A stretch of DNA of 64,000 bases. It comes from an uncultured Alphaproteobacteria bacterium. Its GTDB lineage: Bacteria; Pseudomonadota; Alphaproteobacteria; RF32; CAG-239. The stretch covers positions 9,240 through 73,239 of the forward strand of contig CALXLC010000052.1 in assembly GCA_944389095.1 (NCBI GenBank), given 5' to 3'. Below are positions 8,338 through 40,071 of this stretch, piece by piece. The notes under the pieces were generated by a model. The model saw only the letters and a list, made by a program, of their open reading frames with translations. It was not told the DNA's origin and did no database searches. The stretch's first letter is position 1, and every line of letters starts with the position of its first letter. A program made the position numbers and the translations under genes.

Positions 8338-8412
8338 TTTATACCTCTGTTGTCCGAAAATAATACCGGGTATACTCTAAATCGGCCTAATTTGCAATAT
8401 TTAAATAGCTTA

Positions 8413-8439
8413 AAGGCCGCCAGAAAATCTGTCGGCCTT
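8413..8439 (-). terminator. terminator-like hairpin
   Basis: AAGGCCGCCAG-AAAAT-CTGTCGGCCTT: an 11-bp stem with one mismatch, 12 nt downstream of the relic ORF stop at 8452. The T-run on the minus strand is weak. Confidence 0.35.
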
Positions 8440-8451
8440 TTAACAAGAAAG

Positions 8452-8897
8452 TCAGAAATAATGTTTTGATCTCAGCCATGAAAGATAGTTATTCATATCA
8501 ACATGTATAAAGAATTCAGGAACAATCAGATACAAATTTAAGATAAAAATCGCTCTTAATTTGATTGTTAAAAATTCATCCGTTGTTCTTTCACGATTTT
8601 TGACATAGAAATCCCAAAACACCTGTAACAATTTATGAAAATAGACCCATGAATATTCAAGTTTTGCCGAAACATTCGTCTTTGAATAATTATCGGCAAC
8701 TACCGAAAAACTTTTGGTTCGATAAACAGGTATTTTCCGTTTAACCGGGAAAGAAGTTCATTGAGGATACCTTCATAATAACTGGGAAAGGCGCGTGTTG
8801 CCATCACCAAATTAGCCGGTGTCAAGATTACGACCATTTCTTTAATTTCTTTGACATTTTGCTCGTAAAAAATACGACTGCTTTCATCTGAATACAT
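8452..8897 (-). pseudogene. possible frameshifted relic of an unknown gene in an AT-rich spacer
   Basis: The track ORF 8700..8897 (65 aa) is followed by a second open frame, 8452..8757, with no start codon (..VADNYSKTNVSAKLEYSWVYFHKLLQVFWDFYVKNRERTTDEF..SWLRSKHYF). The two frames overlap in different phases, and the 446-nt span is not a multiple of 3. Confidence 0.3.
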
Positions 8898-8976
8898 AAT
8901 TGTAATGTTTTAGTTAATAATAAAATTTGTCGGCATAATAACATAAAAACACAAGAGTCAATTTGAAGCCGCAATT

Positions 8977-10320: not shown

Positions 10321-10499
10321 GATTTCTCCTTGTTTTTTTCTTATAATCAGAAAGAAAAATTGTTGCAAGTCTTAAAAAGGCGGTTTTTTTGACTCAGCAG
10401 CGCAAATTTACATCATCTTAACGTTTATATCATAAAATTATTAAAGTTGCTTTCTACGAGCTTCCTGCGGACTCAATTTTTTTAACCGAAAGTTGTAAA

Positions 10500-11180
10500 A
10501 TGACTGATTTTAAGCTGAAATTGATTATCTGGGATTTTGACGGCGTTATTGCGGACAGCGAAATTCTATGGCTGGAAAACCGACGCCGGATGATTAACAA
10601 CAAATTCGGTCTGAATTGGGATATCCATCAAACTAATCTGAATATAGGCGGCATGAGCGACAAAACCCGCAAACAAAGTTTAAGCGCTCTGGGATATGCC
10701 ACGGAAGATAAATTTTGGGAAGAGGCACTTGCCGCAGATTATGAAACCATGGCAAAGGGTATTCCCCTCATGCCCGGGGTGACCGATATTTTTGAACTTT
10801 CCGATTATAAACAATGCATAGCCACCGGCGGCAGCCGTTCCAAAACAAAGGAAAAACTGCAAAATGCCCACATTACACAATATTTTTCCGATAACCGGGT
10901 GTTTACCGCAGACATGGTGAAAAACGGAAAACCGGCTCCCGATTTATTCTTACTGGCGGCAAAGGAGATGAATGAACAACCGCAAAATTGTCTGGTAATA
11001 GAAGATTCCCTGCCGGGCATTAAAGCCGCCCAAAATGCCGGAATGAAAGTTGCCGTTTTTGTCGGAAGCAAAATGAACAATACGCCCGAATATATTTCCA
11101 AGGTAAAAGAATTAGGCGTTCAAGATATTTTTGACAATATGAAACAATTGAAGTCTTTTATCTTAAGAAACCCCTCCTGA
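10500..11180 (+). CDS. HAD-superfamily hydrolase, subfamily IA (beta-phosphoglucomutase/phosphatase-like)
   Basis: Contains motif I (IWDFDGVIADSE), motif II (ATGG), and K-x-PAPD...IEDS. Confidence 0.75.
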   Translation: MTDFKLKLIIWDFDGVIADSEILWLENRRRMINNKFGLNWDIHQTNLNIGGMSDKTRKQSLSALGYATEDKFWEEALAADYETMAKGIPLMPGVTDIFELSDYKQCIATGGSRSKTKEKLQNAHITQYFSDNRVFTADMVKNGKPAPDLFLLAAKEMNEQPQNCLVIEDSLPGIKAAQNAGMKVAVFVGSKMNNTPEYISKVKELGVQDIFDNMKQLKSFILRNPS

Positions 11181-11195
11181 GAGGGGTTTCTTTTT
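11167..11195. terminator. bidirectional intrinsic terminator between the HAD gene and rho
   Basis: GAAACCCCTC-CTGA-GAGGGGTTTC, a perfect 10-bp stem, followed by T5. It overlaps both convergent stop codons. Confidence 0.7.
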
Positions 11196-12447
11196 AGGAA
11201 TTCATTGTATTGAAAAAGTCATCATTGTCTTTGCTCAAACGCAGTTTATCGAGCAAAAATTCCATACCGTCGGTCATGCCCATCTGCATTAAAACACGAC
11301 GCAGTACCCACATTTTGGCCAGACGATCTTTATCAACCAACAATTCTTCTTTACGGGTTCCGGAACGGGTGATATCAATGGTCGGAAACAGGCGTTTATC
11401 AGTCAATTTGCGGTCGAGAATAATTTCAGAGTTTCCGGTTCCTTTGAATTCTTCAAAAATAACCTCATCCATGCGAGATCCCGTGTCAATCAATGCCGTT
11501 GCGATGATTGTCAGAGAACCGCCTTCTTCCACATTACGGGCCGCTCCGAGCAGCCTTTTGGGACGTTGCAGCGCATTGGCGTCAACACCGCCGGTCAGAA
11601 CCTTGCCGGAAGACGGAATAACCGTATTATAAGCCCGTCCGAGACGGGTAATGGAATCCAACAAAATAACAACATCCTTTTTGGTTTCCACCAAACGTTT
11701 GGCCTTTTCAATGACCATTTCGGCAACCTGAACATGGCGGCTGGCCGGTTCATCAAACGTTGAAGAAATGACTTCGCCTTTTACAGAACGCATCATGTCC
11801 GTTACTTCTTCAGGACGTTCATCAATCAGCAGAACCATCAGGTAACATTCGGGATGGTTGGTGGCAATCGCGTGCGCAATGTTTTGCAGCATAACGGTTT
11901 TACCGGTGCGCGGCGGCGCAACAATCAGTCCGCGCTGGCCTTTTCCCTGCGGAGCAATAAGGTCTATGACTCTGGTCGTGTAATCTTTTTCGCCGCAGAT
12001 AATATCAAAATTCAGTTTTTTGGTCGGATAAAGCGGCGTCAGGTTATCAAAGTTAACCCGAAGTTTTGATTTTTCGGGGTCTTCAAAATTTATTCTGTTG
12101 ACTTTGGTCAGAGCAAAATAACGCTCATTCTCTTTTGGGGCGCGGATTTCGCCTTCTACCGTATCTCCCGTACGGAGACCGAATTTTTTGACCTGGGCGG
12201 GAGAAACATAAATATCATCCGGTCCGGCCAGATAATTTGACTGCGCCGAGCGCAGAAAGCCGAAGCCGTCCTGCAAAACTTCAATGGTCCCTTCACCGTA
12301 AATGGTATTATCATCGCCGGCAACTTTTTTGAGAATGGCAAACATCAAGTCTTGTACGCGCATTGAAGACGCATCTTCAATACCCAGCTCCTCAGCCTGT
12401 GTTAACAGCTCTGTCGGAGATTTCTGCTTTAAATCTTTTAAATTCAT
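11194..12447 (-). CDS. rho: transcription termination factor Rho
   Basis: Contains the Rho N-terminal domain and RNA-binding segment (GFGFLR), Walker A (PPRTGKT) and LIDERPEEV. The start was chosen at ATG 12447 ([15 protein letters not shown]). Confidence 0.95.
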
Positions 12448-12923
12448 GTAAATCCTGATTGATTTTGTTAATAGGTAGGAAGTTTCTTTTTTATAGTATG
12501 CTTTTGGGTTGGTGTCAAACAAAAGTTGAGCTTTTTTATTCACAGCCCCGCAGGGCCATCTTTAAAATATTTAAAATGTTTTTGTGGTTTGTATATGCCT
12601 GTGAATGTTGTGGAAAAGTTTTTGTACCAAAAGTTATACAGAAAAAAATAGGCTGTTGATAACCTGTAATTTGCAGATTTAAAGGAATTTAAATGTTTTG
12701 CAGAATCAATAAGGGACTCTTGTAAACAAAAAATGACTCAAATTTTTGATAATTGGACTTATTCACAGGCTGTGAATATGACTCAGCCTTGTGCGTAAGT
12801 CGCTATATTAAATTTTACTTTATGGTGATAAAAAGTTATAACGGTACACAGAAAGGCAGTTATGCACAAAAAGTTAACAAATTGTTTATAACTGTGTTAA
12901 CATGCTGAAAAAAGGATGTTTTT
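12448..12923. other. candidate chromosomal replication origin (oriC)
   Basis: 476-bp AT-rich divergent gap. TTATNCACA-type boxes lie at 12536-12544, 12759-12767 and 12860-12868. Near-matches on the other strand lie at 12600-08, 12609-17, 12654-62 and 12771-79. Four GANTC sites fall within 82 bp (12703, 12715, 12735, 12780). The position corresponds to Caulobacter Cori (between the rho side and the coaE-dnaQ side). Confidence 0.5.
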
Positions 12924-20078: not shown

Positions 20079-21248
20079 ATGTCTGTTGAAACAATCGTTT
20101 ATGAGCAAAAAAACGGAAAAGTCAAAATTGCCGGATTGTCCGGCGGGCGGCTGAGTGAGCTGGAATTTTTTGATGAGAACGGTGTGGCAGAGGGCAATAT
20201 TTATTTGGGTCGGATTACCAAGAAAATTGAGCTGGCCAACGGCAAGACCGGGTACTTTGTCAATATCGGGGACAGCCGGGATGCTTTTATAAATGCCGAA
20301 GAGTACGGTTTGGAAGATTTGGTTGCGGCAGAAGGTCAGACAATCGTCGTTCAGGTGGCGCAGGAGCAACGTGCGGAAAAAGGTGCACGGCTGGTACGTT
20401 CTTTGCAGCTGCCGGGTCACAGTCTGGTTTATTGTCCGTATAAATTGACGGTTGAGGCTTCCTCCAGAATAGAAGACAGGCAAAAGGCCGAAGAATATAA
20501 AAATCTGGCCATGGAGAATACAACGGGGCAGGAAGGATGGATTATCCGGACGGCAGGCGTTAATACGCCGGCAGAAAAGTTTGTGGCGGAAATGGCTGTT
20601 TTAAGGAAAAATTTTGAAGATATTCTGGATATGTCCGAGAAAGTGTCGGCTCCCTCTCTGCTGAAGGGAAAAACGAATCCTTTGTTTGATTATATTGCCC
20701 GGCATCGGAACAGTTTGCGTAAAATTATTGTCAATGCACGGACAATTCAGGAAGAAATTACCCGCCGTTTTGGCGATGATTTGTTAATCGGCATTGTTCC
20801 GGGGCCTTTTGATGACTTCGGATTAGAGGAGGCTATCGGCGAAGCTTTACAGAAGGAGATCAGACTTAAAAGCGGCGGAAGGATTTTTATAGAAGAAACC
20901 AAGGCCTGCGTCGCAATTGATGTTGACAGCGGCGAAGACCGGGGAAGCGGAAATCTTGGACGATTAAATGCAGAAGCTGCTTATGAAATTGCCCGGCAGA
21001 TAAAACTACGCAATCTTTCGGGGAAGATTATTATTGATTTTGCCGGTTTGCCCGAAATCCGCTATCTGAACAGCACCATAGAAATTCTGGAGCAGGAACT
21101 CAGAAACGATTATGTCAAAAATACGGTGTTCGGTTTGAGCCGGGCCGGTTGTGTCGAGATTGTCAGGATGCGGCGGCGTCCGTCTTTGCGGGATTTGCTG
21201 ACAACGGAATGCACTTGTTGTCAAGGAACCGGGAGAGTTGAAAAATGA
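20079..21248 (+). CDS. rng: Rne/Rng-family ribonuclease (short RNase G-like)
   Basis: Contains an S1-like N-terminus ([17 protein letters not shown]), the catalytic CVAIDVDSG and GKIIIDF. 389 aa, which is shorter than E. coli RNase G. Confidence 0.8.
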
Positions 21249-21436: not shown

Positions 21437-21877
21437 CTATTTTAGGCTTATTTTTATGAGGCAGGAGAGCAAATCCCGGAAAGACGGGACTTCCAGCCGG
21501 GAGCGAAGGTTGACGCGGTCCAGGACCGCAAAAACACGGCTTTGACCGTCATATATCAGCAGGCTTTCAGGAAGTCTGCCTATAATCAGTTTACCGCGAA
21601 AATAATCATACTTGGCATAAAGTTTGTTAATCTGGGTTAAATCCGGGAAAATATATTGTTTTTCCATACGTTGCTGCGGTGCCGTTCCCATCAGTTCGGT
21701 GCCGTTGAAAATGATTCCGTTGGTTTGCAGCAAAAACTCCCGATAGTCTTCCGGAATTTCGGCAAATCCCTGTTTGGTAAGAAATTTATTGGTTTGAAGA
21801 ATGTCATTTTCGGCGCTTTCCGAAAAATGAACGCTGTATTTGGCGCGGATAATCTGTTCAACCAGGTTTTTAATCAT
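21437..21877 (-). CDS. SMI1/KNR4 (SUKH-1)-like immunity protein
   Basis: Contains IPEDYREFLLQTNGIIFNG, the hallmark LPxDYxxFLxxxNG motif, and a C-terminal ..VFAVLD....SFRDLL. The ATG at 21877 overlaps the upstream stop (ATGATTAA). Confidence 0.5.
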   Translation of the reverse strand: MIKNLVEQIIRAKYSVHFSESAENDILQTNKFLTKQGFAEIPEDYREFLLQTNGIIFNGTELMGTAPQQRMEKQYIFPDLTQINKLYAKYDYFRGKLIIGRLPESLLIYDGQSRVFAVLDRVNLRSRLEVPSFRDLLSCLIKISLK

Positions 21878-22475
21878 GATATATTCTCCCGTCAAACCAG
21901 GGAAGATAAATTTTTTTGTAAGTTCGCAGGTAATTATTTTCAATCTGCATGTCTATCAGGCGGTGGACGAGGTCATGGCGCGGATGAGTCTGAATCAGAC
22001 AGAGATTGTTAAAATCCAAGGTTCCGCCGAAATCAAAGGGAATTTTCATGTGGACATCAAAATTTTCTGGTGCAATGCTGCGGCGCAAAAGTTTGATGTC
22101 CGCTTTGGTCAGTCCGGCAGTTTGACAGTCATTGATGTGAGAGTATCCCAAAAGTTTTAAAAATACCTCCCTGATTCGACGGTATTCAATGTATCCCGAA
22201 TCCATTTCCTGCCAATTTTGCGGTTCGTAAGAAGCTTCGCGGAGGGTAAAGTTTTTTAAATTGAATTCTGTCAGGCGTTTTTCCAAAATTCTAAGCATTT
22301 CCTCCGGACCGGGCGGTGCCAAGGAGGCTGAATCTTCGGCCGCAATATCCTGATTTTTGACCATTTCAGACGGCGGCAGACTATTGGGCAGCAAAAGATC
22401 GTTATAAGCTTCCTGCAACGTTTTTGCCGCTTTTGGCCGTTTTTTGTTAAGTATTCGGTTTGACCATTCCCACAT
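21870..22475 (-). CDS. HNH (beta-beta-alpha-Me) nuclease-domain protein, colicin/pyocin DNase-like
   Basis: The C-terminal FDVHMKIPFDFGGTLDFNNLCLIQTHPRHDLVH aligns with colicin E9 [30 protein letters not shown]. No signal peptide. The start is ATG 22475 or GTG 22481, 5-11 nt after the T4CP stop. Confidence 0.5.
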   Translation of the reverse strand: MWEWSNRILNKKRPKAAKTLQEAYNDLLLPNSLPPSEMVKNQDIAAEDSASLAPPGPEEMLRILEKRLTEFNLKNFTLREASYEPQNWQEMDSGYIEYRRIREVFLKLLGYSHINDCQTAGLTKADIKLLRRSIAPENFDVHMKIPFDFGGTLDFNNLCLIQTHPRHDLVHRLIDMQIENNYLRTYKKIYLPWFDGRIYHD

Positions 22476-22486
22476 CGGCACTTCCG

Positions 22487-24712
22487 TCAGGCATTTTGGG
22501 GATTATCCGTTTCATCGTCTTCAAATTCGGAATCGTCATAGTCTTCGTTAGGATTGTAATCAATGCCTAATTTGGCCAGCATATCGTCGTTGATATCTTC
22601 GCGCTGGGCAACAATCCAGTCCGGAACATTCGGTGCCGGCGGAAGATTGCGCAGGGCTTTCATTTTTTTATCGAGGTACCAACGCGGCGAATCCGCCATA
22701 ATAGGACGGTCAATGTAGCTTTGCATCAAGACCACCTGTTTAAGCAGCGGCAGGCTCAACAACTGAGTTGTCGAAATAACCGAAACTCCCTGCAGCTGAT
22801 AGCTGACGTTTTTGGCGAAAGGATTTGTTCCTTTGCCGAGGCCGCCTTCGTTTTTGGAGAAAGAGGTGGTTTGTACGGTTTTGTTGCCAATCATTTTGGA
22901 AAAGCGCTGGGCTGTTTGTTCGTTGTTTTGAGATAAGATGATTTTGCAGGCCGTGGTGGAAATGACCGTTTCCAAATCGTCTTTTCCGTATTTTCCGGAG
23001 ATTTGACCGAGGTCTTGTCCGATAAGCAGGTAAGATACTTTTTGTCCGCGTCCGACCGCCGGTCCGTCGATAACGGCCTTTAATTTAGGCATGGTCGGAA
23101 ACTCGTCCAAGACAAACAGGCAAGGGAAGGGGCCCATTTGTCCATCGGTGGCATTGACGGATTTGGGTGTATTGGCGATGAGGTAAGAGGACATCAGGTC
23201 AATAAATGTTCCCGAAATGACGCTCAGGGCGCGGGCATCTACCTGATTGACGGACAGGTAAACCGAAATGGGTTTGTATTCACCGGTAATCGGGTCTTTA
23301 AGGCCGCGGAGGTCTTTGAAATTAATGTCACTGAAAGAGGTGCGGGCAACAACAGCCGAGTTTTTGAAAATACCGATGCCGGCAAATGCCGTGGACATAA
23401 CTGAACCGCGCTCTTTGTCAGGCATGGAACTCAACTGGCTCAATTCAACAATACACCGGGGAGAATAACCGAATTTGCGGGCTTCTTCAATGGCTTCTTC
23501 CAGCAAATCGCGCATGGGGTCGGCCATGGCCGCCATTTGATCGCCTTCGTCCAGACGGCGTTTGATGTCCTGAGATTGTTTAATCTGAGCTTCGGTAATC
23601 CATTCCAAAATCATGGCAATACAAGCTTCCCGGCCAATCCATTTTTCCGGCAGAAGGGCCCAGGAACCTATAGGCAGATAGTTGTCTATGGTTAAATTAT
23701 TGCTGCGGAGATTTTGGACGGCGCGCGCGGCCATCGGGTCATGCATTTCCAGATAGTAGCCTTCCAGCACTTTTTTGTCTTCTTCATCCAGTTTGCCTTC
23801 ATAAACGCGGCCGATGAAATAATCATTGGCGCGGGCTTTTTCGCATTTTGAAACGATGAAGTGGATGAAACCGGTCAAAGCGGCACGTCCGGTTTGAGAC
23901 CAGTGCGGGTCGGCTCCGCCTTTGGGGTCTTCCACAAGCGTGTTGCACATAGAGTCAACGTACATATCGCGAGCCGGCCCGGGAGCGGGAACGGCGGTGG
24001 GAGACAACGGATTCCAGCTCGGGTAGTAGATTCCTTCGGCGGGATTGTCTTCCATACCCCAGTTGATAATGAAAACAGGACCGACTTTTCCCCGGGCGCC
24101 GGAAGTTTGAAAACACAATTCCGGTTTGGGATCGTTGACAATGATGCTCAGACCGGGTGAGTTGAAAATTGTCGGAACAACCACGCCGGCGGTTTTACCG
24201 GTTCCCGGAGGTGCGCAGCATAATGTGGAGAGGGTTTCTTTCAGCAGGAGCAGGCGGCCGTTGAATTTGCCGACAACCTGGCAAAAACCGTCAAATCCGA
24301 GCAATTCCATTTTTTTGATGTCTTTTTCGGTGGCCAGTCGGGCGGAACCGTGAACGTTTGACTGGAATCGGTAAGGATTGGTAATCAGTCCGGTAATCAG
24401 TCCGGCCGGAAAGCTGATAAACGGCAGAATCGGAACCCACAGGCTGAAAGAGAAATCGCCGTGATAGTTGAGCAGTTGTTTGAACCAAGCCCAGTATCTG
24501 GAATAGAGATATCCCGGTTTGTTGAAGACCATTGAGAAGTATTTGCCAACGTCGTCAATGGAATCCTTGGAAATTCCGGTTCCCAGCAAATAGCCGAGCG
24601 GCATGGCGGCAAGCGCCAAAATGATTGTTACAACAATGGAAATAATGACGGTAATCACCATCCAGCGGACGGCATTGTCATATTCTTCCCACTCTTCTCC
24701 TCTTTTACTCAA
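22487..24712 (-). CDS. virD4: VirD4/TraG-family type IV secretion coupling protein (T4CP)
   Basis: 741 aa with N-terminal TM helices, HGSARLATEKDI, Walker A (CAPPGTGKTAGVVVP), Walker B (LFVLDEFPTMPKL), IGQD, and an acidic tail (NEDYDDSEFEDDETD). TTG start with AAGGA 8 nt upstream. Confidence 0.85.
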   Translation of the reverse strand: MSKRGEEWEEYDNAVRWMVITVIISIVVTIILALAAMPLGYLLGTGISKDSIDDVGKYFSMVFNKPGYLYSRYWAWFKQLLNYHGDFSFSLWVPILPFISFPAGLITGLITNPYRFQSNVHGSARLATEKDIKKMELLGFDGFCQVVGKFNGRLLLLKETLSTLCCAPPGTGKTAGVVVPTIFNSPGLSIIVNDPKPELCFQTSGARGKVGPVFIINWGMEDNPAEGIYYPSWNPLSPTAVPAPGPARDMYVDSMCNTLVEDPKGGADPHWSQTGRAALTGFIHFIVSKCEKARANDYFIGRVYEGKLDEEDKKVLEGYYLEMHDPMAARAVQNLRSNNLTIDNYLPIGSWALLPEKWIGREACIAMILEWITEAQIKQSQDIKRRLDEGDQMAAMADPMRDLLEEAIEEARKFGYSPRCIVELSQLSSMPDKERGSVMSTAFAGIGIFKNSAVVARTSFSDINFKDLRGLKDPITGEYKPISVYLSVNQVDARALSVISGTFIDLMSSYLIANTPKSVNATDGQMGPFPCLFVLDEFPTMPKLKAVIDGPAVGRGQKVSYLLIGQDLGQISGKYGKDDLETVISTTACKIILSQNNEQTAQRFSKMIGNKTVQTTSFSKNEGGLGKGTNPFAKNVSYQLQGVSVISTTQLLSLPLLKQVVLMQSYIDRPIMADSPRWYLDKKMKALRNLPPAPNVPDWIVAQREDINDDMLAKLGIDYNPNEDYDDSEFEDDETDNPQNA

Positions 24713-24739
24713 AGTCGTTCATCCTTTTTTATCGCCAGA

Positions 24740-26029
24740 TTACGCAATGCTGCGAATCAGTTTTTTTATCTTTTCAAATTTATCCCGGTCGATTTTTCCG
24801 TCGGCATCATCCAAAGCTTTGGCGAAAAGCCGTATTTCTTTAGGTGTGCCGCGGTCAATACGGGTGACGTTGATTTTCATGTCGTTCCAGATTTCGAACA
24901 TGTCTTCAGCATTAATAATATTGCCGATTTGCTCGATAACATAAGCTTCTACTTTGAAGTTTAAATCCGCTTCGGCTAATTTATCGTTAAGAATCAGCCG
25001 GGCCACGTCAATTTTACGAACCGGGGAAATGCGGTGAGAGCTTTCGGAAAACCAAAGGGGTTCTTCGTCGTTAAAGCGTTCTTCGTCAGCCAGCCAGTCT
25101 CCGGGTTCTTTATCGCTGAGGCAGAGGCATATCTGGGTTGCGGAGACGCCGATAAAATCAATGAGCGTATTTTTGATGGTTGCACCGGTAATGACTTCGT
25201 AACCTTTTTGTTTGAGAACTTCAAGGGTGGAATTGGAACTTCCTCTGGTCGGTTTGGTGCTTTCGGAAGCAGGAGCAGGGGTCGATTTGTTGTTTTTGCC
25301 GTTGCGGCCATTATTTTTAGCCGGTCGTTCGGGCGGCGGTGCGACGGGGGTGTCTTCGGGTTTGGGTGTTTCACTGCTTTTGTCGTCAAACAAATCAAAG
25401 TCAAAATCGGTCGGTTCGTCGTCAAATTGGAACAGGGAATGGTCAAATTCAATCGGTTTTGAGGCCGGGGCCGCTGCGGCAGCGGTTGAGGGTTTAACCC
25501 GCGGCATGGCAGTCGGTGCAGATAATCCCGAAGACGGTACGGCCGGTTGCGCCGGGAGGGCATAAGCTCCGTCTTCCAACGGCGGACGAACACTTTTGGG
25601 GCGGATTTCTTTGTAGGATTTTTTCTTTTTTACGACTTTGACGCTTGCTGTGTTGGCTATGGATTTTATAGGTTTTTCAAAAATTTTGTTGATGAATTTG
25701 AGCGGAATTTCCAGAACCCAGCCAAAAATTTTGCCCCATTTAATCATGCTGAGAGCGGCCAGGCCGGTCAGCCACAGCGGAATGAAGGTTAAAATAATCA
25801 AAACAAAAGCCCATTCTTTGGGATCATCAATAACCCATCCCGAAAGCCAGAGATTCCAAGCGTGTTCCCAGTGAGAAGTCCGCAAAATGTCAAAACGCCA
25901 GTTGGTCAGCAATATTACGCGCACACCTTCCAGAAAGATAATGCTCCAGAAGATGCCGACGAAGGCGATGCGCATTAATATTAATAAAGGTTTCAAAGAA
26001 ATTTTACTCCTTGCTGCCGTCTGCGGCAA
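24740..26029 (-). CDS. hypothetical membrane protein: 2-TM Trp-rich module, Pro/Ala and acidic-aromatic linker, C-terminal globular domain
   Basis: The N-terminus is paralogous to the next gene upstream. The linker contains EFDHSLFQFDDEPTDFDFDLFDD. The start is uncertain: TTG 26029, or TTG 25996 (MKPLLIL), which lies 9 nt after AAGGAG. Confidence 0.6.
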   Translation of the reverse strand: MPQTAARSKISLKPLLILMRIAFVGIFWSIIFLEGVRVILLTNWRFDILRTSHWEHAWNLWLSGWVIDDPKEWAFVLIILTFIPLWLTGLAALSMIKWGKIFGWVLEIPLKFINKIFEKPIKSIANTASVKVVKKKKSYKEIRPKSVRPPLEDGAYALPAQPAVPSSGLSAPTAMPRVKPSTAAAAAPASKPIEFDHSLFQFDDEPTDFDFDLFDDKSSETPKPEDTPVAPPPERPAKNNGRNGKNNKSTPAPASESTKPTRGSSNSTLEVLKQKGYEVITGATIKNTLIDFIGVSATQICLCLSDKEPGDWLADEERFNDEEPLWFSESSHRISPVRKIDVARLILNDKLAEADLNFKVEAYVIEQIGNIINAEDMFEIWNDMKINVTRIDRGTPKEIRLFAKALDDADGKIDRDKFEKIKKLIRSIA

Positions 26030-26060
26030 TTATAACATAAAATAGGTTAACAACTGTTTA

Positions 26061-26549
26061 TTAGAATTTACTGGTTTCGGATTCTATTTTTTTCTGAATT
26101 TCTTCGCGGATGTTTTTGACTTCACGCGGGGATTCCGGTTTGATGGATTCTATTTGATTTTTTACGGCTTCCACAGCTTCCCGGCTTGATTTCAGATTGC
26201 GGAGAATAATACGTTTGGAATCGTGTCCGTATTTGTTGATAATATGCCGGTTGTAAGCATTGACCGGGAAAAGAAGAATAGCCGCATAATCGACGCGAGT
26301 CAACCTTTTCCAGCCCCAGAGCCAGAGCGGAATTACCATTATCAGCATAAACAAAAACAAATAATCCGGCGCGGTTTTGATGACACCGCCGATTTGCCAA
26401 AAGTCACGAATGGTGTGCCAGCTTGAGGCCGAGAAAAAACTGAAGTTCCAGAGGGCAATAAACACAAGGTTGACGACCGGCAAAAAAACGTAAGTCCATC
26501 CGGCACCGATGAGCAATGTTCTGACAAGTATGAATATTTTGCGCAACAT
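26061..26549 (-). CDS. hypothetical membrane protein (2-TM Trp-rich module paralogous to the 24740..26029 N-terminus)
   Basis: LWNFSFFSASSWHTIRDFWQIGGVI...VIPLWLWG here compares with NWRFDILRTSHWEHAWNLWLSGWVI...FIPLWLTG in the neighbour. The ATG lies 3 nt after the upstream stop, with GGAGG 9 nt upstream. Confidence 0.6.
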   Translation of the reverse strand: MLRKIFILVRTLLIGAGWTYVFLPVVNLVFIALWNFSFFSASSWHTIRDFWQIGGVIKTAPDYLFLFMLIMVIPLWLWGWKRLTRVDYAAILLFPVNAYNRHIINKYGHDSKRIILRNLKSSREAVEAVKNQIESIKPESPREVKNIREEIQKKIESETSKF

Positions 26550-26552
26550 TTC

Positions 26553-27989
26553 TCAGCGGCCTCCGCGGTCTTTGCCGGGATTAATGTTTGACGGTTTGTT
26601 TTTTTCGTCGGTATTTTTTTTGACCGGTTGGTAGTTTTCAAAGTAATTTCGGCTTTTTTCGTTTTCTCTCTGGCGCTGCTCCAGGATTTCCATTGTGCTG
26701 TTTAAGTCATTCAGCTCCTGGCGGCTTTTGTCGCTTGTGGGTAAAGTATTTACCGCCTCACTCATAAGCTGCTCGCGGTTTTTTTCTTTGGGAATTCCGT
26801 AAAGTGTGCGGTCCAGCTTGTCTAAAACGGGTGTGGAAGGATTGTGTCCTTTCTCATCATAATTGCCGCTTTTGATATTGGCGCGGGCTTCTTTGAAAGC
26901 CTTTTGGCTGGTTTCGAGAACTTCTTTGAAGTCTTTGTATTCACTGGTTCCGTCATTTATTTTTTTGAGTTCCGCCAATGCCAGTTTATGACCCTCTTCA
27001 AGGTAAAGCTGAAAGTTTTTGTTGAGGTCTTTACCTTCAAAAGCATCGACGTCTTTGCTTTGCAGCTGCATCATCTTGGCAAAAGCGTAGTTGTTGGCGA
27101 TGTGATTTTTCATGCTGAAAAGGGTTGCGTGGTTTAAAATGGTTTCGGCAACCGTTGCTTTGGCCTGTTCTTTGTCAAAGTTTTCGCCCTGCTCGGCTAT
27201 TTTGACATTGGCAGCCAGAGTGGTTATCAATTTGTATATCTGGCTGTCTTTTGACAAGGGGGCATCTTTTTCGGTAATTTCAATTTCATCCAATTTGCCG
27301 TCAATGGCTGCGGCAGCAATAGCGTAAAGCTGTTTTGAGTTGTCAATGACAGGATTTTGTTCTTTGTTTTTGCTGTCAATTTGAAGCAGCTGTTTGCTCA
27401 GCCGGGTCGTGCGGTCATCATTGGGGCTGAAGCCGAATTCGCTTTCCGGAACGCGGTTTTGTTGCATGGTTTGATTGATTTTTTCTCGTTCCCGCGTAAG
27501 GTCTTCCCATTTTTCTCGCGCATTGTTCCAAACATATTTTCCGCCGTCGCCGATTTTGTTGCAGCCCCAGGCAAGAATCCGATAGGCTGCCAGACCGCCT
27601 AACCCGCAGACTTTGTCTCCGGCCCAGGCCGCAGAAGCCAAAACAACGTCTTTCATTAAAAATTCGATGAAATCGCCCTGTTGGATATCAAATTTGCCTT
27701 TTTCCGGATCGCCGTAATCGGGATCTTTGAAGGGTTTTTCCAGTTTTCCGGCAGCACGGTTGCGTTTTGCGGGAGGCGGCGTTTGCGGTTGTCTGGTCGG
27801 ATCTTGGAGATAGAGGTTTCGATCGCTGTCAACGGTTGCCGAATTGTCGGAATCGACAAAGGCAGAATTGGTGTTGGCATCAATGCCGGCAGAGTTGTCC
27901 CGGGTGACGTGCAAAGGATTGCCGCCGCCAAAACGAGCTCGTTCTACTTTTTGTTGCTGTCCTTTTCTTAAATCTTCCGCTGCCGACAT
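26553..27989 (-). CDS. hypothetical protein (478 aa; hydrophobic hairpin plus long Lys/Glu-rich helical region)
   Basis: Long uninterrupted ORF in the operon. Contains the segment VVLASAAWAGDKVCGLGGLAAYRILAWGC. No recognisable domain. Confidence 0.55.
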   Translation of the reverse strand: MSAAEDLRKGQQQKVERARFGGGNPLHVTRDNSAGIDANTNSAFVDSDNSATVDSDRNLYLQDPTRQPQTPPPAKRNRAAGKLEKPFKDPDYGDPEKGKFDIQQGDFIEFLMKDVVLASAAWAGDKVCGLGGLAAYRILAWGCNKIGDGGKYVWNNAREKWEDLTREREKINQTMQQNRVPESEFGFSPNDDRTTRLSKQLLQIDSKNKEQNPVIDNSKQLYAIAAAAIDGKLDEIEITEKDAPLSKDSQIYKLITTLAANVKIAEQGENFDKEQAKATVAETILNHATLFSMKNHIANNYAFAKMMQLQSKDVDAFEGKDLNKNFQLYLEEGHKLALAELKKINDGTSEYKDFKEVLETSQKAFKEARANIKSGNYDEKGHNPSTPVLDKLDRTLYGIPKEKNREQLMSEAVNTLPTSDKSRQELNDLNSTMEILEQRQRENEKSRNYFENYQPVKKNTDEKNKPSNINPGKDRGGR

Positions 27990-28067
27990 GGTAACCTCGC
28001 TTGAAAATATTTATTTCTTTCAGAATAACATTTATTTCGTGTTTTGTCTATATTTTTCGCTATTTTT

Positions 28068-29033
28068 TTAGGCTTTCAGTTTTTTCATGAATTTGCCGAT
28101 TTCTTTGTTGATTTTGATGCCGTCTTCCGGTTTGGGTTTTATCATACCGAAAAAGCGGGCGGGAATCTTTTCTATCAGAATCGGGGAAAAAGTAGCCGGG
28201 TTGTTTTCGAGCATTTTTTGTGCGCCGACAGGGTCTTTGCGGGCGGTTTTAAAGTAGTTGCCGATCAGCCTTTCGGCGTCAATCGGAAATTTTTGTTTTT
28301 TGATTGCTTCAATATAACGCTGCATTTTTTCTTTGCGTTCCTGATGCTCTTCATAGAGACGGCGTTCAATTTTTCGCTTTTCGGCTTTGGCCTTGCGTTG
28401 GAAGTAGGCTATTTCGCAGCCTTCCAGTTCTATTAAAATTTCCACATAAGAAATCAGAGCCAGCTGGAGGCTTTCGTTGGTTGTTTTTTCCGCAAACTCC
28501 AGAATCTGTTCGTCGCTGGCCTGAGCCGGGAGACTGGCCAGGCGTGTCGGCTGGCTTTGGAGCATGACATCCCAGCCGAGCAGAACGTTTTGATTAATCA
28601 TTTGACCGCGGGAAGGACGGTAGCGGGGGTATAAGTCTTCCGCCGTAAGGGTAAAAGCCGGCGTTTCCATATCGGCCTGTTGGGCCAGAACTTTTACGGC
28701 TTCGGTGAAATTGTGATAGGCATCGTAAAGCTGGCGCTCTTCCGCGTAAAGACGCTGGACGTATTCGTCAACGTTGTCGTTCAGCTGAGCGGCGAGAGGT
28801 TTTTTGTTTTTTTCAAGCTCAAGGGTTTCTTCCTGAGTTGCGTCGCAGTCTTCCAACTGACTGGAAATAAACTCGTCCAGAAGACGATCAAAGTCGTCTT
28901 TATCTTCGTTTTTGGCCGGTAAAGGCTGGTTGGGTTCGTTATCAACCGTCAAATCAATGGTGCTGGGGATGAAGTCGGAGTTTAAAAACTCTTCTACTTC
29001 GGGATGAATATCATTGTTTGTTTCTGCAGACAT
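28068..29033 (-). CDS. hypothetical cytoplasmic protein (321 aa, acidic N-terminus, basic C-terminus)
   Basis: Uninterrupted ORF 10 nt downstream of the first operon gene. No recognisable domain. Confidence 0.55.
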   Translation of the reverse strand: MSAETNNDIHPEVEEFLNSDFIPSTIDLTVDNEPNQPLPAKNEDKDDFDRLLDEFISSQLEDCDATQEETLELEKNKKPLAAQLNDNVDEYVQRLYAEERQLYDAYHNFTEAVKVLAQQADMETPAFTLTAEDLYPRYRPSRGQMINQNVLLGWDVMLQSQPTRLASLPAQASDEQILEFAEKTTNESLQLALISYVEILIELEGCEIAYFQRKAKAEKRKIERRLYEEHQERKEKMQRYIEAIKKQKFPIDAERLIGNYFKTARKDPVGAQKMLENNPATFSPILIEKIPARFFGMIKPKPEDGIKINKEIGKFMKKLKA

Positions 29034-29043
29034 GGCGGCCTCT

Positions 29044-29328
29044 TTAATGAACTGTTATTACGGTGTCGATTTCGGCACGGTTGCGGTTGTAAATAATCAG
29101 GCGATCCGGGAGGCCGCCGTTTTTGAGGAGGATGTACAGGTTTTCTCCTTCCGTTTTGAAATCGGCAATGCCGCTTCCCCGCGGTTGTTCCAGGTTATAA
29201 GATATTTCGTGGCGAGGGAGCGGTGTCCGGTTTTTTTTATAAATCACGCCCAGCAGGCTCAGGGTTCCGAAGACCAACAGAAAAGTCAGTATGACGACAA
29301 TTGTTTTTATCAGTTTGAGCTTATCCAT
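29044..29328 (-). CDS. hypothetical small single-pass membrane protein (first gene of the operon)
   Basis: 94 aa with N-terminal TM segment IVVILTFLLVFGTLSLLGVI followed by a beta-rich segment. Confidence 0.5.
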   Translation of the reverse strand: MDKLKLIKTIVVILTFLLVFGTLSLLGVIYKKNRTPLPRHEISYNLEQPRGSGIADFKTEGENLYILLKNGGLPDRLIIYNRNRAEIDTVITVH

Positions 29329-29339
29329 CGTTATCTCGC

Positions 29340-29367
29340 TTGCAAGTTTTGTTTTTAACCGTATTAT
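29340..29367 (+). promoter_or_regulatory. sigma70-like promoter for rluD; its -10 overlaps a perfect minus-strand TATAAT for the divergent operon
   Basis: TTGCAA, a 16-nt spacer, then TATTAT on the plus strand. The complement of 29363-29368 reads TATAAT toward the T4CP operon, but with no good -35. Confidence 0.4.
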
Positions 29368-29402
29368 AGAGCCGAAACATCCTTTTTTTTGAAATGTAAA
29401 AG

Positions 29403-31456: not shown

Positions 31457-31933
31457 TTATCCGTTTTCGGCGTTCTCTTCGTTTTTGGCCCAGTCCTGAG
31501 AAAGTTTTTCAAGACGCGCGTCTATCACCTTAAGGCGGTGTTGTGACGATGCCTTGGAAATCATTACAAAAAGGTTGGGCAGCTCATAATAGATAATAGC
31601 GCCGACAGCGGCTGCGCCAAGCATGATAATCAGATTGAAAATATTGCTGACGATTGAAAAAGCCTGATCCAGGTCAAATTGATTAAAAATGTTCATCAGG
31701 CAGATAAAAACGCCGGACAGATTAAAACAACCGATAACCGTCAGTTTGGTGGCGTTTTTAGAGTCAGTGAGCAAAACGGTAATTGACGGCAGCAAGCCGA
31801 TCAGAACGATAATAACCGCCGGGAGAGCCGTAAAGATAAGAACCAATAATCCCAAAACCAGCAGGATTTTTTGGAATAAAGACAATTTTTTTAACGGATT
31901 ACCCGGTTTTTTGTTTTCTTTTTTTGCTATCAT
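31457..31933 (-). CDS. hypothetical four-TM membrane protein coupled to the pseudokinase
   Basis: 158 aa with four hydrophobic helices. The ATG overlaps the upstream stop (TAATG). Confidence 0.6.
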   Translation of the reverse strand: MIAKKENKKPGNPLKKLSLFQKILLVLGLLVLIFTALPAVIIVLIGLLPSITVLLTDSKNATKLTVIGCFNLSGVFICLMNIFNQFDLDQAFSIVSNIFNLIIMLGAAAVGAIIYYELPNLFVMISKASSQHRLKVIDARLEKLSQDWAKNEENAENG

Positions 31934-33957
31934 TACTTAATCGCCCAGTAGATTATGCTGAAAATAAATGATGCCATCATGGTTATAATCGCAATGATGG
32001 AAGCCAGACGGAGCGCCAGTTCTTTGGCTTCTTCATCCAATTTGGGGCCGCCATTTAAAATGCGGTTGCGTTCCATGGTCAGAGAATTGATTTCACGGAG
32101 CGCTTCGGCATATTCCAGACGGTCTTTTTGTTTGGCCTCGTCGTTTTCAAGGATTTCATGGATTTCAATGACTTTACCGTTTTTGGCAATCTTACCCAGC
32201 TCTCTTTCCAGATATTTTTGGTATTTTATGTTATGGTATGACTGGATTATCGGTCTGGAAATGCTGACCAGCCACTGAGTAAGATTGGGAAGTTGAACGG
32301 GGCCGTGTTTGTTTTGAATATTGGCGTAGAGACGTATAATTGCGCTGATTTGCAGAATTTCGCTGCGGGAATTGAGATCGGTCAGAATTCCGTCAATTTT
32401 TTTGCCCATTTTGCAGCGCAAATAAGCGATAATATTGCGGTCATAGGGTGCGGTGTTTTTGAAATCGGAATAGTTGTTATCAAGCGCTCGCAGCACTTTG
32501 GCCGGTGAGTTGACAAAGTCATTGCCGATAAGCAGGCTGGTGCAGGGCAGGTCGTCGTCAAAGTCATACATAATTCGGTCGATGCCGTATCCGTAATCTT
32601 TTCGGTTGACATAGACTTTGAATTCATTGCTGTTTGACGGTGCGCGCAGCGAGGGCTGCTCCTGATACCAGTTTCTGATGACGTCGCCGGAAAGCAGGGC
32701 ATAAAAATCTCCTAAATTCTGGCTTGTTTTCAGATAATAGAACAGTGTTTTCGGAATACCGCCCGGGAAAACAAAAATATCACCGGCTTTTACGGGAAGC
32801 GTGAAATCAAGCATGATGCAAATCTGCTGCACCAGAAACGGAGAATTTTCGCTTTCGTTGTTTTGGCGAATCAATTTTTCAACACGATTATGAAGTTTTT
32901 CGTTTTCAAGGCCGTTTTTTATCCATTCAAGAAGTTTTCCGTTTTTTATCAGGGTAACGGCTTCATCCGGATTGTTGAGCAGCGCAATGGCGACGCTTTT
33001 GGCCGTATAGAGTTTTTCATTTCCGATTGTGAGTGCCCGCATGGATTTTTCGGTGGTTTCCGAAGCGATGAAAGTGTTCGGTTTGCCGTCCAGATAATTG
33101 TATATTTGGAGGTAATTCCAGCGGCTTTCGGGGTTGTCTTCCAGCATTCCTTTCAAAAGGGGCGTGAATTGATTGTAAATTTTATCCATGCCGAGCAGGG
33201 CGGCATAAGACCCTTTTTTCAGTTTGGTACGCAAAAGTTCGGGAACGGAAATTTCGGCAGCCGGTTCTTTTTGCAGCAAAAGTCCGAGCATGGCGACGCC
33301 GGCGGCGTAAATATCGTCCGGCGGGGTTCCTTCACCGCGTCCCTGCGGCAGGCAGAGCAGGCTTTCCACCGTTTCGTAAGCGGCGGGCTGATAAAGCGCC
33401 GGAAAACTGGCCAGACAATCACCCAGGACAATTTCTGTTTTTGAGGCGTCTTTGTAAAAGATGTTGTCCAGACGAATGGCCCGGTGCGAAATGTTATAAC
33501 CGCGCAGGCTTTCGCAGGCGGAAACAATTGAAAGAACCAGATTTTTGAAGCGTTCAAAACTGTTTTTCAGGTTAATATCGGCATTGTCAAACAGATTGAC
33601 TTTGGGACCGCCGGGCCGCCGATAAATCAGGGCCATGTTGCGTGATTTTTGAGGCAAATAATCCACGGCACTGTATTCCACCAGCTTTAACAGATGCGGG
33701 TGGTCGATGGATTTAAGGTAGGGCAGCTTGGACAGACGCGGCGGAAATTTGTTGTCGCAAATCAAAGCAAAAAGTTCCCGTTGGGGGTTTATTTTGTCTT
33801 TGACCTCATAAGCCTGGGCTCCGTTAGTATCAAACTGCGGCAAGGGAGCGTCAAATTTTATTTCATAACGTTCTTTAACCAAAACGCTTTGGTTGGTGTT
33901 TGCCACAGCGGGAACTTCCGTTTCTTCCTCCGGCGGAATATTTTCTTCGTCAGCCAT
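31933..33957 (-). CDS. membrane-anchored Ser/Thr-protein-kinase-like protein, predicted pseudokinase
   Basis: The catalytic-loop-like ISHRAIRLDNIFY has Ala in place of the HRD Asp. GDC replaces DFG, and DDIYAAGVAMLGLLL is present. There is no Gly-rich loop. About 350 aa of unknown domain follows, then a C-terminal TM helix. Confidence 0.55.
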   Translation of the reverse strand: MADEENIPPEEETEVPAVANTNQSVLVKERYEIKFDAPLPQFDTNGAQAYEVKDKINPQRELFALICDNKFPPRLSKLPYLKSIDHPHLLKLVEYSAVDYLPQKSRNMALIYRRPGGPKVNLFDNADINLKNSFERFKNLVLSIVSACESLRGYNISHRAIRLDNIFYKDASKTEIVLGDCLASFPALYQPAAYETVESLLCLPQGRGEGTPPDDIYAAGVAMLGLLLQKEPAAEISVPELLRTKLKKGSYAALLGMDKIYNQFTPLLKGMLEDNPESRWNYLQIYNYLDGKPNTFIASETTEKSMRALTIGNEKLYTAKSVAIALLNNPDEAVTLIKNGKLLEWIKNGLENEKLHNRVEKLIRQNNESENSPFLVQQICIMLDFTLPVKAGDIFVFPGGIPKTLFYYLKTSQNLGDFYALLSGDVIRNWYQEQPSLRAPSNSNEFKVYVNRKDYGYGIDRIMYDFDDDLPCTSLLIGNDFVNSPAKVLRALDNNYSDFKNTAPYDRNIIAYLRCKMGKKIDGILTDLNSRSEILQISAIIRLYANIQNKHGPVQLPNLTQWLVSISRPIIQSYHNIKYQKYLERELGKIAKNGKVIEIHEILENDEAKQKDRLEYAEALREINSLTMERNRILNGGPKLDEEAKELALRLASIIAIITMMASFIFSIIYWAIK

Positions 33958-39994: not shown

Positions 39995-40071
39995 GTACCC
40001 GTAGCTCAGTTGGATAGAGTATCAGCCTCCGACGCTGAGGGTCGTGGGTTCGAATCCCTCCGGGTACGCCA
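39995..40071 (+). tRNA. tRNA-Arg (anticodon CCG), CCA encoded
   Basis: Hand-folded cloverleaf: acceptor GTACCCG/CGGGTAC, D-arm GCTC..GAGT, anticodon stem TCAGC/GCTGA with loop CTCCGAC, and T-loop TTCGAAT. The T-stem has one T:T mismatch. Confidence 0.85.

Follow-up and report, generated by a model that had tools for sequence, protein, structure and literature searches.

Type IV secretion systems (T4SSs) with scattered genes have so far been associated mainly with Rickettsiales. The effectors of the Xanthomonadales system (X-T4SS) carry a C-terminal recruitment domain, XVIPCD, and in the Bartonella Vbh T4SS a toxin-antitoxin pair, VbhT/VbhA, is encoded beside the coupling protein, the toxin being itself a T4SS substrate. 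Pairing of an HNH domain with a SUKH protein is classic for toxin and immunity genes. The hallmarks of the Rickettsiales system, rvh, are scattered loci, multiplied VirB6-like genes, and duplicated VirB8 and VirB9 genes, with virD4 staying within the virB8-virB11 cluster (PMC2653234). The rvh of free-living basal Rickettsiales has been proposed to kill congeners or competing microbes (PMC11077975), and bacteria-killing T4SSs secrete nuclease effectors (PMC11253643). Here, we examine an eight-gene block within 64,000 nucleotides (the window) of an uncultured Alphaproteobacteria bacterium, taken from contig CALXLC010000052.1 of assembly GCA_944389095.1. The eight genes, all on the minus strand, are called g1 to g8 in order of transcription, from 29328 down to 21437, and g6 encodes a type IV coupling protein (T4CP) of the VirD4 type.

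On balance, we favor the reading that this block is the coupling-protein and substrate-recruitment sub-locus of a scattered chromosomal VirB/VirD4 T4SS, as in rvh. The original prediction, made from the letters of the window, had left two possibilities side by side: a chromosomally fixed recruitment module feeding a nuclease effector to a T4SS encoded elsewhere, or a T4CP-driven membrane machine of a new kind. The former is favored by the conservation of the block, by a nuclease/immunity-like pair that travels with the T4CP, and by linkage to VirB genes in a sister clade; the latter we regard as unlikely.

Pfam places g6 in T4SS-DNA_transf (PF02534; E 7.6e-56, 190.3 bits against a cut-off of 20.1) and TraG-D_C (PF12696; E 6.5e-23, 81.5 bits), with 60.2 bits to PF10412. 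Two hydrophobic segments lie at its N-terminus (residues 12-48 and 88-111), followed by HGSARLA (121-127), the Walker A motif CAPPGTGKTAG (166-176), and the Walker B motif FVLDEF (533-538), and 15 of the 40 final residues are acidic. The GTGKT and FVLDEF positions are invariant in an alignment that includes plasmid VirD4s. Family matches and motifs thus agree with the initial description of this 741-residue product as a VirD4/TraG-family T4CP with a transmembrane (TM) N-terminus, intact motifs, and an acidic tail. The nearest annotated T4CPs are 33-35% identical over nearly their full length and lie at the ends of virB2-virB11-virD4 clusters; the VirD4 of the Erythrobacter cluster is 33% identical over 730 residues (E 4e-109). 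The closest solved relative, by a profile search against PDB, is H. pylori Cag5 (E 4e-8). All NCBIfam equivalogs (VirD4, IncP TraG, F TraD, and others) scored far below their cut-offs, as with PRK13897 at 124.5 bits against 728, and g6 therefore forms a separate subfamily.

Conservation of the block was assessed in a one-genome-per-species GTDB set, in which 293 of 374 pattern-matched stretches encode a relative. Counts for the clade rest on the best 80 of these 293 loci, from 80 different assemblies, with 10-kb flanks searched by tblastn with the window proteins. Gene order was tested in the 74 loci with enough upstream sequence, and presence of the g7/g8 pair in the 69 with enough downstream sequence. 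The order rluD-g1-g2-g4-g5-T4CP is colinear in 73 of 74, the lone exception being a cross-hit between paralogues. Identity of the T4CP is 79-92% across 79 species, with a median of 83%, alongside median identities of 87% for dksA, 79% for rpoH, 64% for rluD, 63% for maf, and 54% for rng among the neighboring genes, and of 59%, 51%, 48%, and 38% for the partners g5, g2, g1, and g4. Colinearity and T4CP identity together argue for vertical inheritance under strong constraint. The block is a vertically inherited core feature of the clade, and its clade-wide conservation points to strong purifying selection on the module. The gene order read from the window is thus kept in relatives from rluD to the T4CP, with the g7/g8 pair as an optional addition (28 of 69 loci).

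Exact or near-exact copies of the locus were found in human and animal gut metagenomes. Named carriers include Azospirillum sp. CAG:260, Proteobacteria bacterium CAG:495, Candidatus Scatocola faecigallinarum, which NCBI places in Rhodospirillales, and many metagenome-assembled genomes (MAGs) labeled "Alphaproteobacteria bacterium"; we take RF32 to be the GTDB order name of this group. In many species, synteny breaks on the 3′ side of the T4CP, and ordinary neighbors follow (addAB, flagellar hook genes, lon, pfl, secA, gyrA, recN). Large open reading frames (ORFs) at this position were considered as VirB4 candidates and rejected, being AddAB, FlgE/FliK, Lon, PFL, SecA, GyrA, a P-type ATPase, and RecN. 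These organisms carry flagellar genes.

Distant homologues of g5 led to other Alphaproteobacteria MAG contigs, among them three loci (L093, L097, and L094) in which a g5-like gene lies directly 5′ of a T4CP gene, the product of which is 52-62% identical to that of the window. In L093 and L097, the T4CP is followed by a longer HNH protein and then by a SUKH protein. A metagenome scan with the L093 T4CP gave 80 more loci in two groups. One is the window-type clade, with T4CPs 73-83% identical and rpoH-rluD synteny; the other is a sister clade, with T4CPs 57-67% identical and the order g2-like gene, variable slot gene, g4-position gene, g5-like gene, T4CP, HNH, SUKH. In eight sister loci (L093, L100, L102, L109, L110, L113, L116, and L119), two to three tandem TrbL/VirB6-like genes stand divergently upstream of the module. 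At least one of these per checked locus passes the Pfam cut-off (26-41 bits against 25.9), the other copies being more diverged. In one further sister locus, L104, two VirB8 genes (E 3.2e-21 and 2e-10), a small gene in the VirB7 position, and a VirB9/CagX gene (E 1.9e-12) lie 6-9 kb from the T4CP, among genes for a DEAD-box helicase, hydrolases, an ABC transporter, and IF-2. The small gene, VirB8, and VirB9 match the clusters of Erythrobacter aureus (NZ_CP031358) and Microvirga sp. VF16 (NZ_CP069357), in which the small gene is the one preceding VirB8. Scattering of loci and multiplication of VirB6 and VirB8 were thus seen in the sister clade, and in neither the window nor the window-type loci; tblastn with the VirB4, VirB10, and VirB11 proteins of Erythrobacter and Microvirga against the fetched loci with their 10-kb flanks returned nothing. 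Since sister-clade copies of the module have VirB6, VirB8, or VirB9 genes in their vicinity, a channel-coupled role is its simplest reading, and because relatives place it beside VirB genes, the orphan status of the T4CP in the window receives an ordinary explanation.

Two further features of the sister loci were recorded. The VirB9/CagX homologue of L104 (881-2401, minus strand) has a C-terminal SPOR (peptidoglycan-binding) domain (E 5.7e-5), a fusion that is unusual for VirB9. In L100, an extra gene (8961-9914) between the g5-like and T4CP genes encodes a protein of 317 residues with N-terminal TM segments; its residues 218-308 resemble the T4CP from about residue 270 at 24-30% identity, so that it looks like a partial T4CP duplicate.

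Turning to the products encoded upstream of the T4CP, g2, g3, g4, and g5, like g7, matched no family in Pfam, NCBIfam, or PADLOC. The first product, g1, had also been called unrecognizable, but it matches Pfam DUF6476, a family without known function. The window protein itself scores just under the cut-off (E 6.1e-5, 23.3 bits against 24), the best orthologue reaches E 4.8e-9, and 16 of 17 orthologues match. We found g1 in 74 of 79 window-type loci from GTDB and in window-type metagenome loci, and never in sister-clade modules. It is probably co-transcribed with g2, from which it is separated by 10 nt, and is probably a bystander on the rluD side, outside the T4CP module. Since g1 is tied to rluD and absent from the sister-clade module, the functional module probably comprises g2 to g8.

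In g2, a DEFDRLLDDFI motif lies within a disordered, acidic N-terminal region, and the remainder folds as an all-helical domain; its AlphaFold2 (AF2) model has a predicted local distance difference test score (pLDDT) of 83.4. Its 371 homologues are all unnamed. Orthologues are 43-64% identical across 74 species, and those of the sister clade match a hidden Markov model (HMM) of the window's clade at E ~1e-37. Against PDB, single-sequence and profile searches with g2 gave nothing beyond chance, and neither did Foldseek (best E 1.1, a chance helical match). The next position, the g3 slot, is occupied by a single ORF of 437-755 residues in all examined loci except one. All 76 slot proteins were joined by iterated HMM search (E 1e-31 to 1e-105), with pairwise identities to the window protein of 23-34%, at which pairwise searches often fail; slot proteins of the sister clade show no detectable homology to g3. 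In the exceptional locus (L014, from MAG SIG57), the slot gene is duplicated (3690-5291 and 6617-8218), giving two copies of 533 residues with identical HMM scores, separated by an ORF of 282 residues. This duplication fits a view of g3 as the evolutionarily most labile part of the module.

The proteins g4 and g5 resemble each other. By BLASTP, g4 aligns to the N-terminus of g5 (E 3e-13, 29% identity over 90 residues), and it consists of a tryptophan-rich 2-TM hairpin, common to g5, and a short C-terminal helix. On this alignment, the two are paralogues, with g4 a truncated one; in the sister clade the g4-position gene encodes a full-length g5 paralogue of 368-387 residues. In g5, basic residues (KKKK) come after the hairpin, and a disordered linker with an acidic FDFD motif then leads to a globular C-terminal domain, 30 consecutive residues of which are invariant within the clade. 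The AF2 model of this domain (pLDDT 77-92) shows an alpha-beta-beta-beta-alpha-beta order that fits a PD-(D/E)xK core, and its top Foldseek matches are all PD-(D/E)xK nucleases (BstEII, R2 RLE, N.BspD6I, Card1, and Can2) at weak statistics, with a best E of 7e-3, a probability of 0.91, and low TM-scores. One distant g5 homologue matches Pfam NERD weakly, below the cut-off, and searches of g5 against PDB sequences, with the single sequence and with profiles, were empty or at chance level. In a broad alignment, aspartates 291 and 306 are mostly kept, and an invariant loop reads GDWLADEE..PLWFSE..HR.SPV. The canonical (D/E)xK lysine, two residues past D306, is not conserved in that alignment, and the domain is therefore probably non-catalytic or non-canonical. 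We read it as a nuclease-derived module that perhaps serves in binding.

In each of the 74 metagenome loci with enough sequence on that side, and likewise in the GTDB loci, the gene directly 5′ of the T4CP is g5. An exhaustive profile search gave 379 representative clusters for the family, and no relative was found among 72,556 plasmids in PLSDB. In two proteins of 1,500 residues (P0510 and P0532), the g5 C-terminal domain occurs amid TPR-Roc-COR-TIR architecture, which is NLR-like and defence-like. Its presence there marks the domain as a mobile module.

The five upstream products had been put forward as matching nothing recognizable. For g2 to g5 this stands at the level of families; it does not extend to g1, and it overlooked the g4/g5 paralogy and the nuclease-like domain of g5. 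Homology of these proteins to standard mating-pair formation (Mpf) or DNA transfer and replication (Dtr) components, which the original prediction had named as a finding that would refute it, was found neither in Pfam, NCBIfam, and PDB profiles, nor by Foldseek of g2, nor by tblastn against plasmid loci. In particular, the two most closely related plasmid T4SS loci, searched by tblastn, hold no homologue of g1 to g5, g7, or g8, so the partners are not diverged Mpf proteins of the plasmid type.

Downstream of the T4CP, an alignment of 22 orthologues shows that g7 has conserved MWEWS residues at its N-terminus, continues through a variable linker, and ends in a domain with the motif PEN-x-N-x-H-hK-hP-x-DFGG...N..L..THP.H..hH. 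Residues H144, G153, N159, and H173 are invariant across both clades, and H169 nearly so. The best PDB profile match is the HNH DNase of pyocin AP41 (E 0.2), aligned residue for residue exactly over the motif, and one of 15 g7 members matches Pfam HNH (E 0.2). An HNH reading is therefore plausible at the level of the motif and statistically unproven. The partner g8 passes the NCBIfam model NF038335 (YrhA) at E 2.9e-15 (56.4 bits, cut-off 55), and scores 22-26 bits, just below the cut-offs, against Pfam SUKH_6, SUKH_5, and SMI1_KNR4. Of the nuclease/immunity-like pair named in the original prediction, then, the SUKH-like half is supported by a curated family, and the HNH half by its motif and a weak profile match.

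Where the pair is present in the clade, it is accompanied by yacG downstream in 12 loci and lacks yacG there in 16. It stays at the 3′ end of the T4CP gene despite the changing downstream neighbors, and g8 accompanies g7 in almost every locus that extends far enough. The C-terminal domain of g7 homologues is one orthologous domain, 38-60% identical, across species and clades. We considered a polymorphic toxin cassette and rejected it, as the toxin domain is orthologous everywhere and no C-terminal swapping was seen. In the sister clade, g7 is found in 15 of 17 loci with at least 1.5 kb of downstream sequence, mostly as a protein of 317-360 residues with a Pro/Gln-rich linker. Four of these HNH proteins, of 349-360 residues, were inspected (L093, 9846-10928; L100, 12376-13437; L104, 12346-13395; L109, 12374-13438). 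They have a MWDWSG N-terminus and a repetitive Pro/Gln-rich linker of 100-150 residues (PQPYAPQPY...) before the nuclease-like domain, a layout that recalls the disordered translocation regions of nuclease bacteriocins. The window g7 is a shortened form that keeps the N-terminal motif. The association of the T4CP with the HNH-like/SUKH pair, found in both clades, is old.

These observations can be assembled into a model. The VirD4-type ATPase would act in the inner membrane as the substrate receptor, and the 2-TM paralogues g5 and g4 would sit with it there, with the soluble helical g2 and the fast-evolving g3 completing a lineage-specific coupling complex. We infer that g2 to g5 bind the T4CP from their strict co-location and co-conservation. 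The HNH-like g7, presumably a secreted DNase, would be the cognate cargo, restrained in the producer cell by the SUKH protein g8. Cargo would be passed to a VirB channel encoded elsewhere, the genes for which this genome should also carry, and delivered to neighboring cells, most plausibly competing gut bacteria. That the target is bacterial seems likeliest in view of the killing T4SSs of Xanthomonadales and of what has been proposed for free-living basal rickettsiae, which serve as analogies. A rearrangement in the clade of the window would have separated the T4CP sub-locus from the channel genes and placed it beside rluD-rpoH.

Several observations count against such a channel-coupled module. 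Neither the window nor the 10-kb flanks of the T4CP in about 120 window-clade loci yielded a VirB gene, and none of the fetched loci, whether of this clade or the sister clade, showed VirB4. As for the proposed cargo, g7 matches no database family, and its HNH assignment is not statistically significant. The g7/g8 pair is also absent from about 60% of clade species, in which the T4CP is still highly conserved, and the nuclease therefore cannot be the only cargo. Finally, full-length g5-like proteins, with both the 2-TM hairpin and the C-terminal domain, are encoded without an adjacent T4CP on four low-GC (28-36%) Alphaproteobacteria MAG contigs (L092, L095, L096, and L098), where their genes adjoin accB/accC, sit between ymdB and secG, or lie beside fabA. 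The g5 family is thus not strictly tied to the T4CP, and it is older and broader than its T4CP association.

If the channel had been lost, or had never been linked, the T4CP together with g4, g5, g2, and g3 could form a stand-alone inner-membrane translocase, for example one that moves DNA or protein across the cytoplasmic membrane only, or that acts on DNA through the nuclease-like domain of g5. We think this unlikely, if worth keeping in view. The lack of channel genes within 10 kb of some 120 T4CPs of the clade is what it would predict, and none of the four partner families is related to Mpf proteins; species that have lost the nuclease pair still conserve the T4CP as they would a core gene, g4 of the clade is shortened and the sister-type VirB6 linkage gone, and the nuclease-like domain of g5 adjoins a motor of the FtsK superfamily. 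However, VirB6, VirB8, and VirB9 genes lie close to this module in sister-clade genomes, the g5 domain is without the canonical catalytic lysine, and absence from 10-kb flanks says little for a scattered system, as rvh shows. We also know of no T4CP that functions without a VirB4-containing channel, and this explanation, if true, would mean the first T4CP machine independent of such a channel, a much more surprising outcome. In a milder version, the channel exists, and g2 to g5 represent a third coupling-complex architecture beside VirD4 alone and DotL-DotM-DotN.

The cargo could instead be DNA, in place of the nuclease or besides it, with the g5 domain, the HNH protein, or both processing chromosomal DNA in the role of a classical relaxase, so that it could be imported or else exported, through DNA release or chromosomal conjugation. 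The ancestral role of VirD4-type T4CPs is that of DNA-transfer motors, which their Pfam names reflect, two nuclease-fold proteins flank the T4CP here, and the annotated part of the window offers no classical relaxase; relaxases with a restriction-endonuclease fold do exist, in the MOBC family. Even so, we judge a DNA-handling T4SS module improbable, given that the catalytic motif of g5 is degenerate, that no oriT-like repeat was seen around the block, that the HNH pair is dispensable in most clade species, and that its combination of HNH and SUKH proteins is the arrangement generally known from toxin/immunity pairs. Slightly less probable again is a membrane-anchored defence or toxin-antitoxin system. 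There, the T4CP-like ATPase would serve as a sensor of incoming DNA that switches on the HNH nuclease, and SUKH would be the inhibitor. A nuclease and inhibitor beside an ATPase and membrane proteins would suit such a device, as would the occurrence of the g5 C-terminal domain inside giant TPR-Roc-COR-TIR proteins. Against this, the locus is fixed in position and near-universal in the clade, the opposite of patchy, island-borne defence systems; its ATPase is more conserved than many housekeeping proteins, and VirB linkage in relatives does not fit. A known anti-phage defence system was rejected, as none of the eight proteins matched a PADLOC model. Lastly, a lone T4CP without channel or relaxase genes in 64 kb superficially resembles the functionless leftover of a decayed integrated conjugative element, an interpretation to which we give almost no credence. 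All ORFs and ATPase motifs are intact, the T4CP and the gene order are conserved across species to the extent given above, the composition is native, and no integrase, tRNA, or att repeat occurs at the block. The original prediction had named a non-conserved, decayed remnant as a finding that would undo it, and the relatives show the reverse. The remnant reading is effectively refuted by this conservation, and the flanking housekeeping synteny excludes recent horizontal copies. The marks of an integrative conjugative or mobilizable element were likewise not found in the annotated part of the window.

If the favored T4SS reading is true, widespread uncultured gut Alphaproteobacteria of humans, poultry, ruminants, and rabbits carry a chromosomally fixed, scattered T4SS. 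Their T4CP would have four undescribed partner families, including a membrane-anchored nuclease-fold protein, together with a nuclease/immunity pair, and would give an example from nature in which other components make up the coupling complex, as well as a candidate contact-dependent weapon in the gut microbiota. With a T4CP 79-92% identical even in species without the nuclease pair, the clade also lends itself to asking cleanly if separation from its channel allows a T4CP to be kept, or even to work. The g2 and g4/g5 families comprise hundreds of sequence clusters, all without annotation; once named, they could be included in models for detecting T4SSs. We found no published description of the module in the searchable literature on RF32/CAG-239 genomics, on orphan T4CPs, or on T4SSs with SUKH/HNH proteins. 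The module and the g2, g4/g5, and g7 families appear to be undescribed. The same seems true of an rvh-like scattered layout in gut Alphaproteobacteria assigned by NCBI to Rhodospirillales, and of a T4CP that is so unusually well conserved while detached from its channel.

The coordinates of the block are collected in the table below. Our ORF listing and gap calculation reproduced the layout described initially: eight same-strand genes with gaps of 10, 78, 3, 31, 27, and 5 nt from g1 to g7 and an 8-nt overlap of g7 and g8, a 74-bp spacer to rluD, and a g8 stop codon that abuts the stop codon of the convergent yacG with zero bases between. Public gene callers choose other starts for two genes, giving 411 or 418 residues for g5 and 201 or 182 for g7.

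Table. Features of the T4CP block, in order of transcription; coordinates are positions in the 64,000-nucleotide window
Feature	Coordinates	Strand	Description	Basis
g1/rluD spacer	29329..29402	none	74 bp, divergent; presumed operon promoter region	Inferred
g1	29044..29328	-	94 aa; DUF6476 family; one N-terminal TM helix	ORF listing, Pfam
g2	28068..29033	-	321 aa; soluble; new family conserved with the T4CP	ORF listing, homologues
g3	26553..27989	-	478 aa; fast-evolving, charged, largely helical; fixed slot between g2 and g4	
g4	26061..26549	-	162 aa; predicted inner-membrane protein; 2-TM hairpin; truncated g5 paralogue	BLASTP, hydropathy
g5	24740..26029	-	429 aa; predicted inner-membrane protein; 2-TM hairpin and NERD-like C-terminal domain	Alignment, AF2, Foldseek
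g6	22487..24712	-	741 aa; VirD4/TraG-type T4CP; intact ATPase motifs	Pfam, motifs
g7	21870..22481	-	203 aa; HNH-like C-terminal domain; candidate nuclease effector/toxin	Conserved motif
g8	21437..21877	-	146 aa; SUKH/SMI1-KNR4-type, YrhA family; candidate immunity protein	NCBIfam

Annotation of the window, by precomputed Pfam labels, covered the region from about 5.5 kb to its end. Within it, the block is wedged between housekeeping genes as first described: the labels of its neighbors are all of this kind, comprising gidA, mnmE, rho, coaE, dksA, maf, rng, yacG, and rluD, and further rpoH, dnaB, metK, lnt, ybeY, phoH, miaB, and tsaD. The initial statement that the 64 kb hold no channel, relaxase, or integrase gene agrees with these labels, and neither relaxase, integrase, nor att repeats were found in the annotated part. 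One tRNA lies in the window, at 39995, 10 kb from the block. No flanking direct repeats bracketing the block were found, and its GC content of 44-51% matches the surroundings. Scans of the window for promoter and terminator consensus sequences gave matches no more frequent than in shuffled sequence. The 74-bp spacer, which presumably holds the operon promoter, contains a single consensus-like promoter site, on the plus strand (29340-29367).

We also noted a 20-nt inverted repeat, 95% complementary, that brackets yacG (21180-21199 and 21468-21487). Its arms lie in the 3′ ends of rng and g8, and each encodes PS[LF]RDLL near the C-terminus; the repeat may be due to chance, or may have been left by the recombination event through which the T4CP block and the yacG side came together. 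The GC skew changes sign at about 10-12 kb, near gidA, mnmE, and rho (6487-12543), and a replication origin therefore probably lies inside the window. With the operon on the minus strand of the positive-skew arm, its transcription would run head-on to replication. Beside rpoH, a gene on the minus strand (31457-33957) encodes a 674-residue protein that matches Pkinase weakly and has a TM helix at its C-terminus; it is followed by a gene for a 158-residue polytopic membrane protein, the start of which overlaps the stop codon of the first. This pair is conserved in strains of the same species.

The kind of ATPase and the logic of the proposed system, with a T4CP, adaptors, an effector/immunity pair, and T4SS genes in scattered positions, have precedents, and each precedent differs from the locus in definite respects. 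The resemblance to rvh, a chromosomal, vertically inherited VirB/VirD4 system with loci split among housekeeping genes, lies in the VirB6-like arrays of the sister clade and in its group of VirB8, VirB7-position gene, VirB8, and VirB9. This likeness rests on gene layout, and the loci of the window's own clade, with their 10-kb flanks, showed no channel genes. Unlike in rvh, the T4CP here stands apart from virB11 and is preceded by the undescribed families g2 to g5, and the hosts are gut Alphaproteobacteria filed by NCBI under Rhodospirillales that carry flagellar genes. The plasmid VirB/VirD4 systems of type IVA in Erythrobacter aureus and Microvirga sp. VF16 have T4CPs of the same architecture, 33-35% identical to g6, but on those megaplasmids the T4CP ends a contiguous virB2-virB11 operon, and no homologue of g1 to g5, g7, or g8 is present there.

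As in the Dot/Icm system (DotL-DotM-DotN-IcmSW), the T4CP has membrane and soluble partners encoded beside it, and acidic motifs occur. The ATPase is nevertheless of the VirD4 type, and no NCBIfam Dot/Icm model was matched. The original prediction had been reminded of dotM-dotL by the 2-TM gene directly upstream of the T4CP; the position holds, whereas homology of g5 to DotM was rejected, since DotM appeared in neither profile nor fold searches, and the cytoplasmic domain of g5 is alpha/beta and restriction-endonuclease-like. The Vbh system of Bartonella likewise keeps a toxin pair next to its coupling protein, although, as is generally known, the VbhT toxin is a FIC rather than an HNH protein, has a BID secretion domain, and belongs to a plasmid-borne, conjugative system. 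The HNH-like/SUKH pair adjoining the T4CP also recalls the X-T4SS, in which VirD4 recruits toxic effectors, including nucleases (PMC11253643), each with an immunity protein, for contact-dependent killing. Unlike in X-T4SS effectors, the conserved non-catalytic element of g7 (MWEWS/MWDWSG) is N-terminal, and the nuclease-like domain is C-terminal.

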